A DNA stretch of 35,803 nucleotides from a virus (lineage: Duplodnaviria > Heunggongvirae > Uroviricota > Caudoviricetes): the IMG/VR virus record IMGVR_UViG_2548876858_000018. One strand, given 5' to 3'. The notes beneath the pieces were generated by a model. The model searched no databases and was not told where the DNA came from. It worked only from the letters and a program-made list of their open reading frames with translations. The translations under genes were made by a program, and so were the position numbers. Positions 4,879 to 34,621 of the stretch are shown in pieces (position 1 is the first letter of the stretch; each line of letters starts with the position of its first letter).

Positions 4879-5732
4879 GCACCATCCTGAAATGGGCGGG
4901 AAATAAAACCGCCATTATGTCCGAACTGAAAAAGCATCTTCCTGCTGGCCCGCGACTGGTTGAACCTTTCGCGGGTTCCTGTGCTGTGATGATGGAGACG
5001 GAGTACCCCAGCTATCTTGTTGCGGATATTAATCCTGATTTAATCAACCTCTATAAAAAGGTTGCTGCTGATTGTGAATCGTTTATATCTCGCGCCAGAG
5101 TTTTATTTGAGATCGCAAACAGGGAGGTGGCTTATTACAACATAAGGCAGGAGTTTAATTACTCAACTGAAATTACTGATTTCATGAAAGCGGTATATTT
5201 CCTGTATCTCAATCGTCACGGTTACCGTGGTTTATGTCGCTATAACAAGAGCGGGCATTTCAACATTCCCTACGGTAATTATAAAAATCCGTATTTCCCT
5301 GAAAAAGAAATTCGCGCATTTGCAGAAAAAGCCCAGCGAGCAATGTTTATCTGCGCCAGCTTTGATGAAACGCTGGCGATGTTGAAGGCGGGGGATGTGG
5401 TGTATTGCGATCCGCCGTATGACGGTACGTTTTCCGGCTATCACACTGATGGTTTCACTGAAGATGACCAGTATCACCTGGCATCCGTTCTTGAACATCG
5501 GTCATCAGAAGGACATCCGGTCATTGTTTCTAACAGTGACACATCCCTGATCCGTTCGCTGTATCGCAATTTTACTCACCACTATATCAAGGTAAAACGC
5601 AGCATCGGTGTGGCAGCTGGCGAGGGTAAATCAGCAACAGAAATCATTGCTGTTTCCGGGCCGCGCTGCTGGGTGGGATTTGATTATTCGCGTGGCGTGG
5701 ATAGTTCTGCCGTGTACGGAGTACGTGCATGA
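4875..5732 (+). CDS. dam: DNA adenine methyltransferase (Dam-like, GATC N6-A class)
   Basis: ATG at 4875 ([11 protein letters not shown]...); motifs [26 protein letters not shown] shared with E. coli Dam. Confidence 0.85.
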
Positions 5733-8143
5733 GCCATGCCGATATGAACAACTGCTGCGGCTTTAACGAGGCTGCCGCAGCGTTCTCATGGAACAGCCCG
5801 AAAAAGGCCATTAACCCTTATCTGGACCCGGCGGAAGTTGCGCCGGTTTCTGCGCTTTCAAACCTGATCACTCTGTACGCTGCCGATAACGAGCAGGAAC
5901 AGCTGCGCCGCGAGGCACTGAGTGATCAGGTCTGGGAGCGTTATTTCTTTAATGAATCCCGTGATCCTGTCCAACGCGAAATGGAGCAGGATAAGCTCAT
6001 TAGCCGGGCAAAGCTGGCGCATGAGCAGCAGCGTTTTAATCCAGACATGGTCATTCTGGCGGACGTTAACGCCCAGCCTTCCCATATCAGCAAGCCGCTG
6101 ATGCAACGTATTGAATACTTCAGCAGCCTGGGCAGGCCAAAGGCTTATTCCCGCTATTTGCGTGAGACGATTAAGCCATGTCTGGAACGACTGGAGCATG
6201 TACGCGACTGTCAGCTATCCACTTCTTTTCGCTTTATGGCAAGCCATGAAGGGCTGGACGGCCTGCTGATCCTGCCTGAAATGAGTCAGGATCAGGTGAA
6301 GCGCCTGTCTACCCTTGTCGCCGCGCATATGAGCATGTGCCTTGATGCAGCTTGTGGTGATTTGTATGCCACCGATGACATTAAGCCAGAAGAAATCCGC
6401 AAAACATGGGAAAAGGTGGCAGCGGAAACCCTGCGTCTGGATGTTATCCCGCCTGCGTTTGAGCAACTCCGTCGGAAAAGAAACCGCCGTAAACCCGTGC
6501 CTTATGAACTCATTCCGGGTTCGCTGGCGCGTATGTTATGCGCCGACTGGTGGTATCGGAAATTATGGAAGATGCGTTGCGAATGGCGGGAAGAGCAGTT
6601 GCGTGCTGTTTGCCTGGTCAGCAAAAAAGCATCTCCCTATGTCAGCTATGAAGCCGTGATGCATAAACGTGAGCAGCGCCGTAAGTCGCTGGAGTTTTTC
6701 CGTTCTCATGAACTGGTGAACGAAGACGGCGACACGCTGGATATGGAAGACGTGGTAAACGCCAGCAGCAGCAACCCTGCACATCGCCGCAATGAGATGA
6801 TGGCCTGTGTTAAAGGTCTGGAGCTTATCGCGGAAATGCGCGGTGACAGCGCCGTTTTCTACACCATCACCTGTCCGTCACGTTTCCATTCCACGCTAAA
6901 TAACGGCAGGCCCAACCCGACCTGGACAAATGCGACGGTAAGACAAAGCAGTGATTATCTGGTCGGTATGTTTGCTGCATTTCGTAAGGCGATGCACAAA
7001 GCCGGATTACGCTGGTATGGCGTGCGGGTGGCTGAGCCGCATCATGACGGTACAGTTCACTGGCACCTGTTGTGTTTTATGCGCAAAAAAGATCGCCGCG
7101 CCATTACTGCTTTGTTGCGTAAGTTTGCCATTCGTGAAGACCGCGAGGAGCTGGGTAATAACACGGAACCACGCTTTAAGTCTGAGCTGATAAACCCGCG
7201 CAAAGGTACGCCAACAAGCTACATCGCGAAATACATCAGTAAGAACATTGACGGGCGTGGTCTGGCTGGCGAGATCAGCAAGGAAACGGGTAAATCCCTG
7301 CGTGATAACGCTGAATACGTTAATGCCTGGGCGTCTCTGCATCGTGTTCAGCAATTCCGCTTCTTTGGCATTCCGGGGCGTCAGGCTTACCGTGAACTGC
7401 GATTGCTGGCTGGTCAGGCGGCAAGGCAACAGGGGGGCAAAAAAGCAAGTGCGCCGGTACTGGATAACCCGCGCCTTGATGCCATCCTGGCCGCTGCTGA
7501 TGCTGGTTGTTTTGCCACCTACATCATGAAGCAGGGCGGCGTACTGGTTCCCCGCAAATATCACCTCATCAGAACCGCTTATGAAATCAACGAAGAGCCG
7601 ACCGCCTATGGCGATCACGGTATTCGTATTTATGGCATCTGGTCACCCATTGCAGAGGGCAAGATCTGCACTCATGCGGTGAAGTGGAAAATGGTTCGTA
7701 AGGCCGTTGACATTCAGGAGGCGGCAGCCGACCAGGGCGCTTGCGCCCCTTGGACTCGTGGCAATAACTGTCCCCTTGCTGAAAATTTGAACCAACAAGG
7801 GAAAGACAAATCAGCTTATGGGGATACCAGAACGGACATTACCCGCATGGATGACAAGGAGTTGCACGATTACCTGCACAGTATGAGCAAAAAAGAGCGC
7901 CGGGAACTGGCTGCAAGGTTACGCCTGGTGAAACCGAAACGGCGTAAAGACTACAAACAGCGAATTACAGACCATCAGCGACAGCAGCTCGTCTATGAGC
8001 TGAAGTCCAGAGGATTTGATGGCAGCGAGAAAGAGGTCGGTTTACTCCTTCGCGGCGGCAGTATTCCGTCAGGAGCAGGCCTGCGTATCTTCTATCGGAA
8101 CCAGCGTTTGCAGGAAGATGATAAGTGGCGGGATCTGTATTAA
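5729..8143 (+). CDS. A: Replication initiation endonuclease (P2 gpA family, rolling-circle initiator)
   Basis: 804 aa; HxH-type motif GTVHWHLL; position and size as P2/186 gene A; start overlaps dam stop. Confidence 0.9.
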
Positions 8144-8494: not shown

Positions 8495-8728
8495 ATGCGC
8501 ATTGAAATAATGATCGATAAAGAGCAGAAGATTAGCCAGTCTACCCTGGACGCTCTGGAGTCCGAGCTTTACCGCAACCTGCGCCCCCTGTATCCCAAAA
8601 CGGTAATTCGTATCCGCAAAGGTAGCTCTAACGGTGTGGAACTTACCGGACTGCAACTGGACGAAGAAAGAAAACAAGTGATGAAAATTATGCAGAAAGT
8701 GTGGGAAGACGACAGCTGGCTGCATTAA
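8495..8728 (+). CDS. DinI-like protein (Tum C-terminal-like)
   Basis: ATG 8495 (MRIEIMIDK...); resembles E. coli DinI (MRIEVTIAK..., C-terminal W-E-D-D-W motif). Confidence 0.75.
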   Translation: MRIEIMIDKEQKISQSTLDALESELYRNLRPLYPKTVIRIRKGSSNGVELTGLQLDEERKQVMKIMQKVWEDDSWLH

Positions 8729-8862
8729 GAAACGTTGCTGGCGTCTGAACTTGCTTCTGGCGTCAGCAAGGTTGAACAACGAGCCCTTGCGAGGCGTTAG
8801 CTCTGTAGTGCATGTCTATGCCGCATGAGATCGCATGATCGTTTGAGGATCGTTTTTGCTAA

Positions 8863-8888
8863 GGCCCGCCAGAACTGGCGGGCTTTTG
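8863..8888 (+). terminator. Rho-independent terminator ending early/SOS operon
   Basis: GGCCCGCCAG-aa-CTGGCGGGC stem followed by TTTTG. Confidence 0.55.
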
Positions 8889-8932: not shown

Positions 8933-8951
8933 GGCGTGGCGGGGATACGAG
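8933..8951. other. cos-like sequence (candidate cohesive-end site)
   Basis: GGCGTGGCGGGGA matches first 13 nt of the 186 cohesive end as I recall it (P2 is GGCGAGGCGGGGA...); remainder diverges. Confidence 0.35.
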
Positions 8952-9052
8952 CGCGCGCAACAGTGTAACAATCTGGATCTAATGTGATATAGTTACTGTA
9001 AATATTATTAACTATTCTTATATGCATTATTAAATATTTTAATGGAGCGTTT

Positions 9053-10726
9053 ATGGAAAAATATCAAGATGAGGAATATGTAGATGATTTAACTGAGCGT
9101 GTTTTTCTCATTAAGCAACAACTGGAAGCGGGAAAACTAAAAATAGCTCATCATCTTGTAGAAGGTTTTATTGAAAGTTTTAAAAGAATAAGGCTGCGAC
9201 AGGATGGTAAAGTTGACCCTTCTACTGTTGATGGCAGAATAAGGGCTATGGGAGCAGCGGTTAATCACTTTTTAGAAAGAGAAGATATAAAAAACAAATA
9301 CTCTATTCAGGACTTGCAAAGTTCTTACTTTAATATTCTTTTTAGTAATTTTGGCGAGTTGTTTTATCTGATGAAAAAAACTAATGCAACGCCACATAAA
9401 GCATCAAGTTTTTTTTCTCAACAAGAAGAATATGTTAAGCAAATAGAAGATATTTTTCCTGAGTTATATAATCAGGTAATAGAGTTTTGGCAGGTAACAT
9501 CCGATATTGGTGTAATACATTTGCAGGATGGTTCTCAGTTTAAAGCTAATTTTTCTGGTGACTTATTTCCTGCATTTGATGAGAATGCTGTCTCTATTGC
9601 AGGGTTGTATGTTGATACTATTTCACTTCCATGTCCTATATTAAGAGTCGGTCGTCTCTATGAAAAGTCAGATAAGGCTGAGTTTACAAGGATACTTCTG
9701 AAGCATGTCCTAACATGTATGACATATAAAGAAGTAGCGCTTGAAGATATAGAGCCAGCAATAGTATTAATTTTGCCGGATAGAAGAGATTTTGAAACTG
9801 AGAGCAAAAAAAATTTGATGAGTTTTTGTGAGCCTTATGCTCTGACTCATGCGCAATATCTCTATGATCGACGGTTCGAAAGCTACGATGAATTTCGAGA
9901 TTTTAGTTATTCGATGAATGATATTGATGCTGTTCTTAAAAATATTAAGAGAGCAGATAGACTTATTTTTGATACAGCATGGGGGCTAAATCCAAAAACT
10001 CAATTAGAAAAACTACTATCTGATAAAAAAAGAATATCACGTAATGTTGTTGGTGATCATGCTGGAATGGAGGTTTTCCTTTCCTGCATTGGAAGAATGC
10101 CGCAAGCCTATTCAGCAAAATGTAATGCACAAGAACTTGGTAGTACTCCATATATAAATGCAGACACATCTTGGCTCTATTATACTTGGCTTATTGAGTA
10201 CGAATCTCTTAATTTTGATGTCAATGATATTGAACTAAAAAATTTGCATATGGTTCATGCGTTATCTGCTGGTATGCAAGATGGTTTTTCATGGTTAGGA
10301 AATGTACCGGTCAATAAAATAATTGAGTTGAGACGTAACAAATTGATGGAGGATGTAAGATCCATCTTATCAAATGGTGTTGACTCTTTAATCAATTCTT
10401 CGGCAGAGAGCTTTTCGAGGACAACGCAAAAAGTAATTGATAATGTAGACCGGGCTTTTATTGAACATCAAAGGATTCTTGCAAAAGCCCAAAAAGAGAA
10501 ATTGAGAATTTACGGACTAGATGTCCTACCATGTATCGCAAATGGTGCTATAGCAATTGCTGGAGCGCTGACTGGCAATACTACTTTAACGGCGTTAAGT
10601 GCAGGCCTTGGAGTAATAGGTATTCCGAGTATTAGTGATATCAAATCTAAATTTAAGCAGAGGCAAGAGAAGCTTGATGCCTATCAACGTTCTGTTACAG
10701 GTATACTCTTTAGCCATAAATCTTAA
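9053..10726 (+). CDS. Hypothetical 557-aa protein, AT-rich cargo gene in the cos-to-portal variable slot; C-terminal glycine-rich hydrophobic segment
   Basis: Long ORF with RBS GGAG; markedly AT-rich; flanked by terminators; no Walker A or nuclease motif recognised. Confidence 0.6.
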   Translation: MEKYQDEEYVDDLTERVFLIKQQLEAGKLKIAHHLVEGFIESFKRIRLRQDGKVDPSTVDGRIRAMGAAVNHFLEREDIKNKYSIQDLQSSYFNILFSNFGELFYLMKKTNATPHKASSFFSQQEEYVKQIEDIFPELYNQVIEFWQVTSDIGVIHLQDGSQFKANFSGDLFPAFDENAVSIAGLYVDTISLPCPILRVGRLYEKSDKAEFTRILLKHVLTCMTYKEVALEDIEPAIVLILPDRRDFETESKKNLMSFCEPYALTHAQYLYDRRFESYDEFRDFSYSMNDIDAVLKNIKRADRLIFDTAWGLNPKTQLEKLLSDKKRISRNVVGDHAGMEVFLSCIGRMPQAYSAKCNAQELGSTPYINADTSWLYYTWLIEYESLNFDVNDIELKNLHMVHALSAGMQDGFSWLGNVPVNKIIELRRNKLMEDVRSILSNGVDSLINSSAESFSRTTQKVIDNVDRAFIEHQRILAKAQKEKLRIYGLDVLPCIANGAIAIAGALTGNTTLTALSAGLGVIGIPSISDIKSKFKQRQEKLDAYQRSVTGILFSHKS

Positions 10727-10731
10727 TGTAG

Positions 10732-10760
10732 AGGGCCGAGGTATTCGGCCCTTAGTTTTA
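10732..10760. terminator. Bidirectional rho-independent terminator between cargo gene and portal gene
   Basis: GGGCCGA-ggtat-TCGGCCC hairpin flanked by T-rich run on + and A-rich on other side. Confidence 0.5.
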
Positions 10761-11789
10761 TATGAAACTGTATGGCATGAATTTTATTATGTCATCTTTG
10801 AGCCATTTATTGAGTTCTTCTATTCTGTTTTGTAGCGGTATCAATTCATTACGCATAAAAACCTTACTAGCCTTCTCCACATCCCCAAATCCCCCAACAT
10901 TATTCGGCATTATCCCCATCATTTGCGGCGGCACTCGGTGTGCTGCCATCATGTCATCCCGGCTCACGTTCTTGATATTCAAAAATTCATCCTTTGCCGC
11001 GACTTCTGACAGAGGAATAATCTGAAGCCCGTCTTTTTTGCCGTTAGGCGAGTACATAAACAGGTTGCGGAAGTTGCCTGGACCTTTGGCGCTTTTCATC
11101 GCGTTACGGAGATTGTTTACATCTTCCTGGTTCTGCGCGGCGTCGGTCATGTACATGATGAAGCCTGCATGGCTGCCGTTGATGTAATACTTACGGCGGA
11201 ACAGCGTGGCGGACTCGTTGAGCAGGGCTGACGGAATGGCAGAAAGATAACCGGGCAGGCCGTAGATCTCCTGGTTGATATCTGGTTCCATCAGATGAAA
11301 AATGCTGCCTTTCGTGAACTGATACGGTTGCGTGGTCATACCGTATTGCACAAACCAGTAGGTATCCAGGTCTAACCCGCGTCGGGTATATTTTGCCAGG
11401 GCAGGCTCAAGAGCGATAATTTCACCGAACCGGTTCGTGCGTTTCTCCAGATAGGCGTTACCAAATACCAGATAGTCCTGCACAAAACGTGAAAAAGCCT
11501 GCTGGCTGAGCAGCGGGTGAGGGATGTAGGTGCTGGTCAGAATGTTGCACTTTACTGCAATCGGGGAACTATGATGAACGGCAGCGCGGAAGGTGCGCGC
11601 CAGTCCGTCAAAGCTGACGGGCGGCTCATACCAGCGGTCCATCTGTACGCATTCCACATAATCCAGCAGTTCTCGGCGGTCCAGAACAGGAACGGGATCG
11701 CCGAAGCTGAATGCTTCGGCTGTAGTTTGACTTTTAAGCTGGATCTGTTTCGTCGCCGCAGCGCGGTTCTTCTTACTCTTTCCCATCAA
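10758..11789 (-). CDS. Q: Portal protein (P2 gpQ family)
   Basis: 343 aa, size and position of P2 Q, adjacent and co-oriented with terminase P. Confidence 0.9.
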   Translation of the reverse strand: MMGKSKKNRAAATKQIQLKSQTTAEAFSFGDPVPVLDRRELLDYVECVQMDRWYEPPVSFDGLARTFRAAVHHSSPIAVKCNILTSTYIPHPLLSQQAFSRFVQDYLVFGNAYLEKRTNRFGEIIALEPALAKYTRRGLDLDTYWFVQYGMTTQPYQFTKGSIFHLMEPDINQEIYGLPGYLSAIPSALLNESATLFRRKYYINGSHAGFIMYMTDAAQNQEDVNNLRNAMKSAKGPGNFRNLFMYSPNGKKDGLQIIPLSEVAAKDEFLNIKNVSRDDMMAAHRVPPQMMGIMPNNVGGFGDVEKASKVFMRNELIPLQNRIEELNKWLKDDIIKFMPYSFI

Positions 11790-34119: not shown

Positions 34120-34143
34120 AACCTGCTACGGCAGGTTTTTATT
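34120..34143. terminator. Hairpin terminator after ogr (overlaps stop of convergent gene)
   Basis: AACCTGC-tacg-GCAGGTT followed by TTTTTATT. Confidence 0.5.
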
Positions 34144-34621
34144 CATCTGGGATCTCACCCGTTTCAAGAAAATGTATAAAGCCAGGCTCATCTATGATGA
34201 TTGTGCCTTTCATCCTGGCTGCCGATACTTTTGATGGGCCTGCATTGTAACCGCAACAGAGCATCTGAAGGCTTTGGGTTATAGAGGTTCTTACCGTTAA
34301 TCCTTGTTCATTCGCCTTATCAACCAATCTTTCTTTATCTGCTTTCTTAAATCCGGTGAAACACACATCGAATGTATTTTTTTTCGGACCAGACTGCTTA
34401 GTGAGATGTGAGTAGCTTTCGGGGAGGAATGACGCGCATTCCTGAATGGCTTGTTCTGGTGAATCGTACTGTTTAAGAATGCGGTCTTTTCGGAAGGTTT
34501 TTATTCGATCGGTGTTCTTACAAATGCCCTGTATATGATTTTCGCTATAACTGATGCTCTGTATAGAGTGAACAGCGATACGACCATTTGCATTGATGTA
34601 AACAAAGTGAAGTTCTTCCAT
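34139..34621 (-). CDS. Hypothetical protein with N-terminal WYL-like domain and C-terminal BRCT-like domain; cargo gene between ogr and attR
   Basis: 160 aa; N-terminal FVYINANGRIAVHSIQ...GIC...DRIKTFRKDRI fits WYL-domain pattern ending RTFRxDRI; C-terminal CFTGF...GLTV...AGPSKV.AA...G..IIDE..F..FL fits BRCT pattern as in LigA; lower GC than phage backbone. Confidence 0.6.
   Translation of the reverse strand: MEELHFVYINANGRIAVHSIQSISYSENHIQGICKNTDRIKTFRKDRILKQYDSPEQAIQECASFLPESYSHLTKQSGPKKNTFDVCFTGFKKADKERLVDKANEQGLTVRTSITQSLQMLCCGYNAGPSKVSAARMKGTIIIDEPGFIHFLETGEIPDE

Follow-up and report, generated by a model that had tools for sequence, protein, structure and literature searches.

What is a 557-residue protein with no recognised domain doing between the cos site and the portal gene of a P2-like prophage? 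The question is raised by IMG/VR record IMGVR_UViG_2548876858_000018, a stretch of 35,803 nucleotides (nt) of caudoviricete DNA (the whole of it is called the window here), in which a single AT-rich gene lies next to cos. An initial annotation, made from the letters of the DNA, had proposed a single-gene anti-phage system of a family that it did not recognise. The family can now be placed: profile comparisons indicate that amino acids (aa) 85-472, the core of the protein, are truly, though remotely, homologous to DitB, which with DitA makes up the Aditi defence system; they represent a sister family rather than a bona fide DitB, and the protein corresponds to an anonymous P2-hotspot entry, system #79 of Rousset et al. 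2022. We assign a probability of about 0.45 to the reading of the gene as DitB-like, membrane-associated, single-gene defence cargo. The evidence for a role in defence is circumstantial but convergent, coming from the hotspot, the swapping of cargo within it, the homology to DitB and the defence neighbours of family members, and, judged from these comparisons, an anti-phage function taken by itself is fairly probable. The coding sequence and the parts of its product are as follows.

9053-10726, + strand: coding sequence of the 557-aa protein, ATG start; the only long open reading frame (ORF) there in the six-frame list, besides short overlapping noise ORFs
9053-9304, + strand: N-terminal helical domain, aa 1-84, highly conserved, helices seen in the AlphaFold 2 (AF2) model
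9305-10468, + strand: DitB-like core, aa 85-472, alpha/beta, with a small sheet of 4 strands and numerous invariant polar residues
10514-10633, + strand: C-terminal Gly/Ala-rich hydrophobic helical hairpin, aa 488-527, Lys/Arg-rich on both sides

Relationship of the protein family to DitB of Aditi

The gene had been described as an orphan, and it is not one. A search of 5.8 billion proteins returned 212 relatives, nearly all of them full length (553-562 aa), in Citrobacter, Klebsiella, Yersinia, Enterobacter, Pantoea, Cronobacter, Serratia, Aeromonas, Aquitalea and other genera, with plasmid-borne copies in Cupriavidus, Sinorhizobium and Photobacterium, and 757 cluster representatives came up at E ≤ 1e-3 in an exhaustive profile search, 261 of them at E ≤ 1e-30. 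The typical member is a proteobacterial protein of about 556-560 aa. Identities among full-length homologs range from 28 to 79% across Enterobacterales, Aeromonas, Aquitalea, Cupriavidus and Sinorhizobium, and 77 columns are invariant in our 33-sequence family alignment. The RefSeq type for the protein, WP_097335535, is annotated as a 'hypothetical protein', and a literature search for the family's RefSeq accessions found no paper naming them. Searches of Pfam, NCBIfam and PHROGs with the 557-aa protein returned noise only, and a sequence search of the PDB returned nothing (best E = 0.42). As the initial annotation had stated, the protein contains no Walker A or HNH pattern by motif scan, and there was no Pfam, NCBIfam or PADLOC match to ATPase or nuclease families; on these grounds it does not group with OLD/Walker-type ATPases or with HNH or other nuclease defence proteins.

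The sole real lead came from the PADLOC check that had been suggested for the locus. The DitB model (PDLC03827) matched aa 195-452 of the protein with profile positions 95-344 of 361 (E = 7.3e-10, 36 bits), and it was matched by 21 of 33 family members. DitB and DitA sequences were taken from the supplement of Millman et al. 2022, and 38 bona fide DitB relatives were collected and aligned for a profile. Profile-profile comparison by hhalign produced one colinear alignment. It pairs family aa 85-472 with DitB aa 10-358 over 331 columns and scores 29.6 (P = 0.0086); to be set against this is an HH probability of only 4.7%. The real score was reached by none of 60 column-shuffled DitB profiles (16.5 ± 2.4, maximum 23) and none of 60 block-shuffled ones (18.5 ± 2.4, maximum 26), and the reversed DitB profile scored 16.0. 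Overall identity is 15%, and an identical residue occurs at 13 of the 21 aligned DitB positions that are conserved at ≥90%. Nine of these 13 are also ≥90% conserved in the family, namely Q89, Y92 and L96 (Q14, Y17 and L21 in DitB), F145 and W146 (F43 and W44), P195 (P95), P242 (P142), Q351 (Q242) and P366 (P257), and the conserved columns of the two families overlap at 12 places where 5.5 are expected (P = 0.002). Because the profile-profile score exceeds that of all 120 shuffles and the conserved positions coincide, we regard the homology as genuine, if remote; this relationship of aa 85-472 to DitB, as read from the profiles, is what is new here.

Aditi is a validated two-gene system, made up of DitA and DitB, both proteins of unknown function, and the system of S. 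kuerlensis was verified (Millman et al. 2022). Our literature search for mechanistic work on Aditi or DUF5677 found none. Like the 557-aa family, DitB occurs in defence-island and mobile contexts and has no recognised domain. Unlike it, DitB lacks both the 84-aa N-terminal domain and the C-terminal hairpin region of about 85 aa, and DitA too is without a comparable hydrophobic segment. The 38 DitB relatives came mainly from Firmicutes, whereas the 557-aa family is proteobacterial, and many of the polar residues that are invariant in the family are not conserved in DitB; H156, D159, K164, D188, K217, H218, R348, T372 and S373 are such family-specific ones. The gene arrangement differs as well. 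In Aditi the gene for DitA (483 aa, Pfam DUF5677, PF18928) overlaps the start of that for DitB, whereas the 557-aa family has no adjacent DitA: about 10 diverse homolog contexts held no adjacent DUF5677 gene and no conserved partner, in keeping with the single-gene arrangement first proposed. In the window, a DinI-like gene and cos precede the gene and the portal gene follows it, and there is therefore no room for a partner gene. That either of the additional terminal parts is DitA fused to the core was rejected, the family profile having no similarity to DitA, either partial or full length.

Two other loci with DUF5677 proteins were seen. L033:2557-4008 is a genuine Aditi DitA region, its DitA falling in Pfam DUF5677. 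On a metagenomic contig, a weak DUF5677 protein of 276 aa (L010:12869-13699) lies 4.2 kb downstream of a family member, with a type-VI retron in between, and is probably an independent system.

The slot beside cos and its changing cargo

The gene stands in a complete P2/186-type prophage, with integrase, CI, CII, Fil, Dam, gpA, DinI-like, portal, terminase, scaffold and capsid genes. Its immediate surroundings comprise the following features.

5729-8143: gpA gene
8495-8728, + strand: DinI-like gene, last conserved gene of the early region and left boundary of the hotspot, from the RefSeq annotation of near-identical prophages
8861-8886, + strand: upstream GC-rich hairpin, then UUUUGCG; folding free energy (dG) -23.4 kcal/mol, z = -4.7, 0 of 200 shuffles as good
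8933-8951, + strand: cos core GGCGTGGCGGGGATACGAG; nt 1-13 of it equal the annotated phage 186 cos and agree with P2 cosL at 12 of 13
8965-8993, + strand: promoter-like site from a consensus scan, GTAACA, 17 nt, TG-TATAGT (extended -10)
9044-9047, + strand: Shine-Dalgarno sequence GGAG, 5 nt before the ATG, read from the sequence
10731-10753, both strands: downstream hairpin, common to the convergent 557-aa and portal genes, from a terminator scan and folding
10758-11789, - strand: portal gene (homolog of P2 Q and 186 W), conserved right boundary of the slot

What had been noted as a cos-like sequence is a genuine cos, its first 13 nt being the same as those of the phage 186 site, and the gene lies between it and the portal gene. 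A defence hotspot of P2 between gpA and the portal gene has been documented (Rousset et al. 2022, PMC9122126; also a 2026 preprint), and the initial annotation had equated the position of the gene with that of P2 tin and old. This holds for the gpA-to-portal hotspot and fails for the side of cos. P2 has A, orf91, tin, old and cosR in this order, followed by cosL, tQ and Q, which puts tin and old on the gpA side, whereas the 557-aa gene (1.67 kb) occupies the cosL-to-portal gap on the portal side. From cos to the stop codon of the portal gene there are just ~165-180 bp in P2 and 186.

Both marks of hotspot cargo were found, the location (gpA, cos, gene, portal) and a variable presence with replacement cargo. 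The flanks occur in about 1,272-1,287 of 5,426 complete E. coli genomes, and only 17 of these have the gene, or about 1% of E. coli prophages with such flanks. It is therefore a variable cargo gene, as had been proposed, and not a core gene of related prophages, which the initial annotation had named as an argument against that proposal. Within the same DinI-like and portal flanks other prophages carry a SieB-family gene, a TIR-containing cluster, a DUF6236 gene or a P-loop NTPase gene. The slot also recurs well beyond close relatives of the window. In 12 other loci, from E. coli, Serratia, Enterobacter and an islet with Ogr/Delta, a family member follows the cos core at a distance of 82-168 bp, and homologs sit next to cos and portal in diverged P2-like phages from E. 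coli, Serratia and other bacteria. Seventeen viral contigs in IMG/VR have a family member, mostly directly adjoining the portal gene of P2-like phages; in the P2-like contigs the identity to the window's genes is 65-100% for the portal, 32-98% for gpA and 42-100% for the 557-aa gene.

In a sister prophage the DUF6236 cargo is found on the gpA side of cos, the 557-aa family being on the portal side; the gpA-to-gpQ hotspot therefore has two sub-slots flanking cos. In L013:3706-4763 (also in L014, L015 and L016) we observed a two-gene module encoding proteins of 71 aa and 280 aa, without Pfam or PADLOC match, the larger with hydrophobic N-terminal segments. It sits between the DinI-like gene and cos, the true equivalent of the tin/old position, across cos from a 557-aa gene that is 100% identical to ours, and the sub-slots are therefore filled independently. 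A separate curiosity is the 614-aa 'P-loop NTPase fold protein' of a sister prophage in E. coli UID2404240044 (L036:617-2461), the annotated start of which is upstream of the cos core (725-737); either the start has been mis-called, or the gene is cut when the DNA is linear in the virion and whole only in the circular or prophage state.

Two decayed prophages have kept the gene and cos intact. That of E. coli isolate 44 (L035, NZ_CM194531.1) has a truncated terminase gene and has lost most late genes, being a deleted remnant beyond ~12 kb, and in Enterobacter kobei (L005) portal fragments alone are left. Such retention would fit selection on the host to keep the gene.

The same protein is already listed in Table S5B of Rousset et al. 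2022 (PMC9122126) as P2-hotspot system #79, a single gene with no Pfam domain and '2 TM' (transmembrane segments), with 49 occurrences among 18,150 E. coli P2-like hotspot loci; that study assigned it no homology or function. Over the ~400 residues compared, the representative of system #79 and the window protein are the same, bar one substitution.

Family members outside the P2 slot keep company with defence genes. The Aquitalea homolog, within a Tn7-like element, has a complete Gabija system directly downstream (GajA 1e-229, GajB 6e-234) and a UvrD-like helicase gene upstream. A type-VI retron reverse transcriptase gene (RT_VI, 2e-76) lies 1.9 kb from the L010 homolog, a PDC-S31/DUF2971 candidate adjoining integrase and Ogr/Delta genes accompanies the L009 homolog, and a DUF4238 protein is encoded near the homolog on a Photobacterium plasmid. 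Within the P2 hotspot of Serratia, a HEC-02A/PD-T4-4_A-like ATPase pair shares the slot with the homolog.

These neighbours bear on a further explanation, that the gene is accessory cargo with no part in phage defence, acting as a lysogenic-conversion or membrane fitness factor, in addiction or maintenance, or in counter-defence. The P2 hotspot does hold such cargo, including partition systems and toxins such as cytolethal distending toxin (PMC9122126), the protein has no known domain, and its homology is remote and to a defence protein whose own mechanism is unknown. We nevertheless consider this explanation unlikely, given the repeated co-occurrence of family members with bona fide defence systems in unrelated mobile elements, the statistical homology to DitB, and a rarity and rapid swapping that are typical of defence cargo.

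The expression signals agree with what the initial annotation had described, a single long ORF with its own GGAG ribosome-binding site and AT-rich leader, bracketed by hairpin terminators. The leader ahead of the GGAG is very AT-rich over ~90 nt. The GC content of the ORF is 35.3% (24.6% at third codon positions), far below the 51% of the window and the 50-59% of the flanking phage genes. Both hairpins fold well beyond shuffled sequences. That at 8861-8886 looks like a terminator that may insulate the gene from the early operon, and that at 10731-10753 (dG -17; z = -4.0 on the + strand and -5.0 on the - strand) folds strongly on both strands and therefore can terminate both convergent genes.

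Predicted membrane hairpin and proposed mechanism

The AF2 model, built from the family alignment, has a mean predicted local distance difference test score (pLDDT) of 83 and a predicted template-modelling score (pTM) of 0.75, with a helical N-terminal part, an alpha/beta core and C-terminal helices. The N-terminal domain has T14, R16, G27, D51, G52, P56, D60, R76 and K80 as invariant residues in the 33-sequence alignment; it is missing from DitB and also from family variants of ~470-490 aa, whose matches start at profile position ~80-85. Six of the 33 members, the window protein not among them, weakly match the PADLOC 'Avs1c' model (86 positions) in this domain (aa 309-374 in P0217), with a best E of about 6e-4; the resemblance may reflect a small domain common to defence proteins, or noise. 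This match and that to LeoBC (E = 0.0046) were set aside as too weak to build on. About a dozen representatives (P0159, P0217, P0224, P0232, P0239, P0240, P0245, P0247, P0249 and P0261 among them) have an extra N-terminal extension of 200-300 aa, for which no Pfam domain was found and PADLOC gave just the DitB core and weak Avs1c and helix-turn-helix (HTH) matches, with a marginal HTH_VI in one; these fusions thus shed no light on function.

The C-terminal region of ~85 aa consists of the end of a 54-residue helix, two hydrophobic helices, a basic amphipathic helix and a conserved SPTG(L)LF tail. The glycine-rich hydrophobic stretch singled out in the initial annotation is present here. It forms two adjacent helices of ~18-20 residues each, with Kyte-Doolittle (KD) peaks in a 19-residue window (KD19) of 1.62 (aa 488-506) and 1.46 (aa 512-530), one GxxxG motif, several small-xxx-small motifs and the invariant residues G488, G498, L512 and G523. 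Of 119 full-length representatives, 106 keep it, and the median KD19 peak is 1.61. We predict that aa 488-527 form a 2-TM or re-entrant membrane hairpin, in accord with the independent scoring of '2 TM' in Table S5B of Rousset et al. 2022 (PMC9122126), and the Lys/Arg-rich segments on both flanks suggest that both of its ends would lie in the cytoplasm.

From these parts a mechanism can be postulated. The gene is an accessory cargo of a P2/186-type prophage, placed with its own expression signals in a cosL-to-portal gap of ~170 bp that is normally empty, and it would be expressed in the lysogen, where the hairpin might tether the protein to the inner membrane or hold it poised there. The DitB-like core, with its many invariant polar residues, might recognise a phage-derived cue, upon which the small-xxx-small hairpin would oligomerise or insert, damage the membrane and bring about abortive infection. 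Such a membrane-disrupting effector is a tentative idea, well short of an even chance. It is conceivable that the hairpin stands in for the DUF5677 partner DitA of canonical Aditi, and that the family is a self-contained, single-polypeptide Aditi in which a DitB-like sensor core is wired to a two-helix membrane effector replacing DitA; this possibility, too, we regard as doubtful.

Several results weigh against reading the gene as DitB-like, membrane-associated defence cargo. Alignment of the family profile with one DitB sequence by hhalign gave no significant match, and hmmsearch with the family hidden Markov model scored the B. simplex DitB at 12.9 bits and the S. kuerlensis DitB at 5.5, the best of 200 shuffles reaching 7.3. 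A second cloned Aditi system, that of B. simplex, gave no protection (Millman et al. 2022). The sequence of system #79 is absent from the tables of validated and additionally tested systems of Rousset et al. (PMC9122126), and the system was therefore catalogued there but untested. The hotspot, as described above, is shared with non-defence cargo. Promoter-like sites are no commoner than chance (5 found, 7.0 ± 3.0 expected from shuffles), and because they are no more frequent than in shuffled sequence, the site at 8965-8993 is only suggestive. The hydrophobicity of the hairpin is marginal for a TM segment (KD about 1.5-1.6), the AF2 pLDDT there is 61-68, and the hairpin may equally be a plain anchor or even a buried element. 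Neither fold nor motif searches point to effector or sensor chemistry.

If the hairpin were a mere membrane anchor, the effector of a defence protein would be the alpha/beta core itself, perhaps an enzyme that depends on a nucleotide and works on phage or host molecules at the membrane, the place of phage DNA entry. Foldseek comparison of the full AF2 model with the PDB returned nothing. Matches to Rossmann-like folds of the HUP class, which takes in class I aaRS-like, nucleotidyltransferase, USP and PP-loop domains, were to cyclodipeptide synthases, pantothenate synthetase, TyrRS/TrpRS, ATP sulfurylase, PPAT/NMNAT, USP and QueC. Membership of that class would call for a confident fold match together with a signature such as HIGH/KMSKS, HxGH or SGGxDS, and because no HUP signature motif is present, the resemblance is a lead only. 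The anchor arrangement appears improbable to us.

Still less probable is superinfection exclusion, in which a membrane-resident prophage protein would block DNA injection or another early membrane step without killing the cell. A predicted membrane hairpin in a prophage-encoded protein would suit this role, another E. coli prophage has a SieB-family gene between the same flanks, and the weak match of aa 430-540 to LeoBC, the membrane dynamin-like component of Eleos, may point to a region that interacts with membranes. The known Sie proteins, however, are small, whereas here a soluble region of ~470 aa is conserved across Proteobacteria; moreover, the family also occurs in chromosomal defence islands unrelated to prophages, and the DitB relatives have no membrane segment at all. 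A random ORF, or a pseudogene in decay within AT-rich filler DNA, might be suspected from the composition, the lack of domain matches and the 'hypothetical' annotation; this has a negligible probability and is excluded because the family is conserved, with full-length homologs at 28-79% identity, 757 representatives, 77 invariant columns and an AF2 pLDDT of 83.

Our reading of the gene as DitB-like, membrane-associated defence cargo also invites comparison with better known systems. TM-effector defence proteins, such as the TM effectors of CBASS and Pycsar, the 2TM effector of retron Ec48, and the RT-nitrilase + TM and TIR + TM proteins of P2 and P4 hotspots, follow a common logic in which a soluble sensing or enzymatic part is joined to a short TM module. 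The 557-aa protein has no sequence or fold relationship to them and no signalling-nucleotide domain; what it has as a putative TM effector is a Gly/Ala-rich hairpin of marginal hydrophobicity, fused C-terminally to a DitB-like core. The P2 genes old and tin are likewise prophage-expressed accessory genes near cos, in the gpA-to-portal hotspot, with transcription signals of their own. They differ from the 557-aa gene in lying across cos from it and pointing the other way, and they are not homologous to it. Old is an ATPase-TOPRIM nuclease, and the PADLOC Old model gives no match to the 557-aa protein.

Other candidate cargo and significance of the family

Two further ORFs of low GC content were noted toward the ends of the window. 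The first (1-1032, - strand, GC 0.31) encodes at least 343 aa and runs off the start of the window, between the chromosomal rcdA side (att) and the prophage integrase gene (1017-2045, - strand). It has no Pfam or PADLOC match; a 241-aa 'hypothetical protein' is annotated here in E. coli isolate 44, and it is absent from the otherwise similar prophage of strain SCU-204. Because the gap between att and integrase has been reported as a minor P2 defence hotspot, this ORF is a further candidate cargo gene. The second (34139-34621, - strand, GC 0.41) lies just past the ogr-like end of the prophage and encodes 160 aa. The product resembles BRCT weakly (E = 0.002, short of the Pfam threshold) and also matches the C-terminal end of PDC-S48, a PADLOC candidate (E = 4e-7).

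The cargo slots of P2-like phages lie on both sides of cos, and if the proposal of a single-polypeptide Aditi is correct, the cosL-to-portal gap would be a distinct cargo sub-slot of these phages and the family a new and widespread proteobacterial defence family. Should the gene prove not to be defensive, it would counsel caution about guilt-by-hotspot inference. In either case, system #79 is no longer an anonymous entry but a family of hundreds of members, with its domains clearly delimited and residues for mutagenesis listed. Aditi is among the few validated defence systems without a recognisable domain or mechanism in the papers that we found, and a DitA-less, single-gene relative in E. coli prophages makes its division of labour testable in a genetically easy host. 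A single-polypeptide Aditi would provide the first mechanistic handle on the system, with DitB as the sensor and DitA or the TM hairpin as interchangeable effectors. The 557-aa gene is a well-delimited experimental candidate rather than a surprise, and its chief value lies in offering a tractable entry to the mechanism of Aditi.

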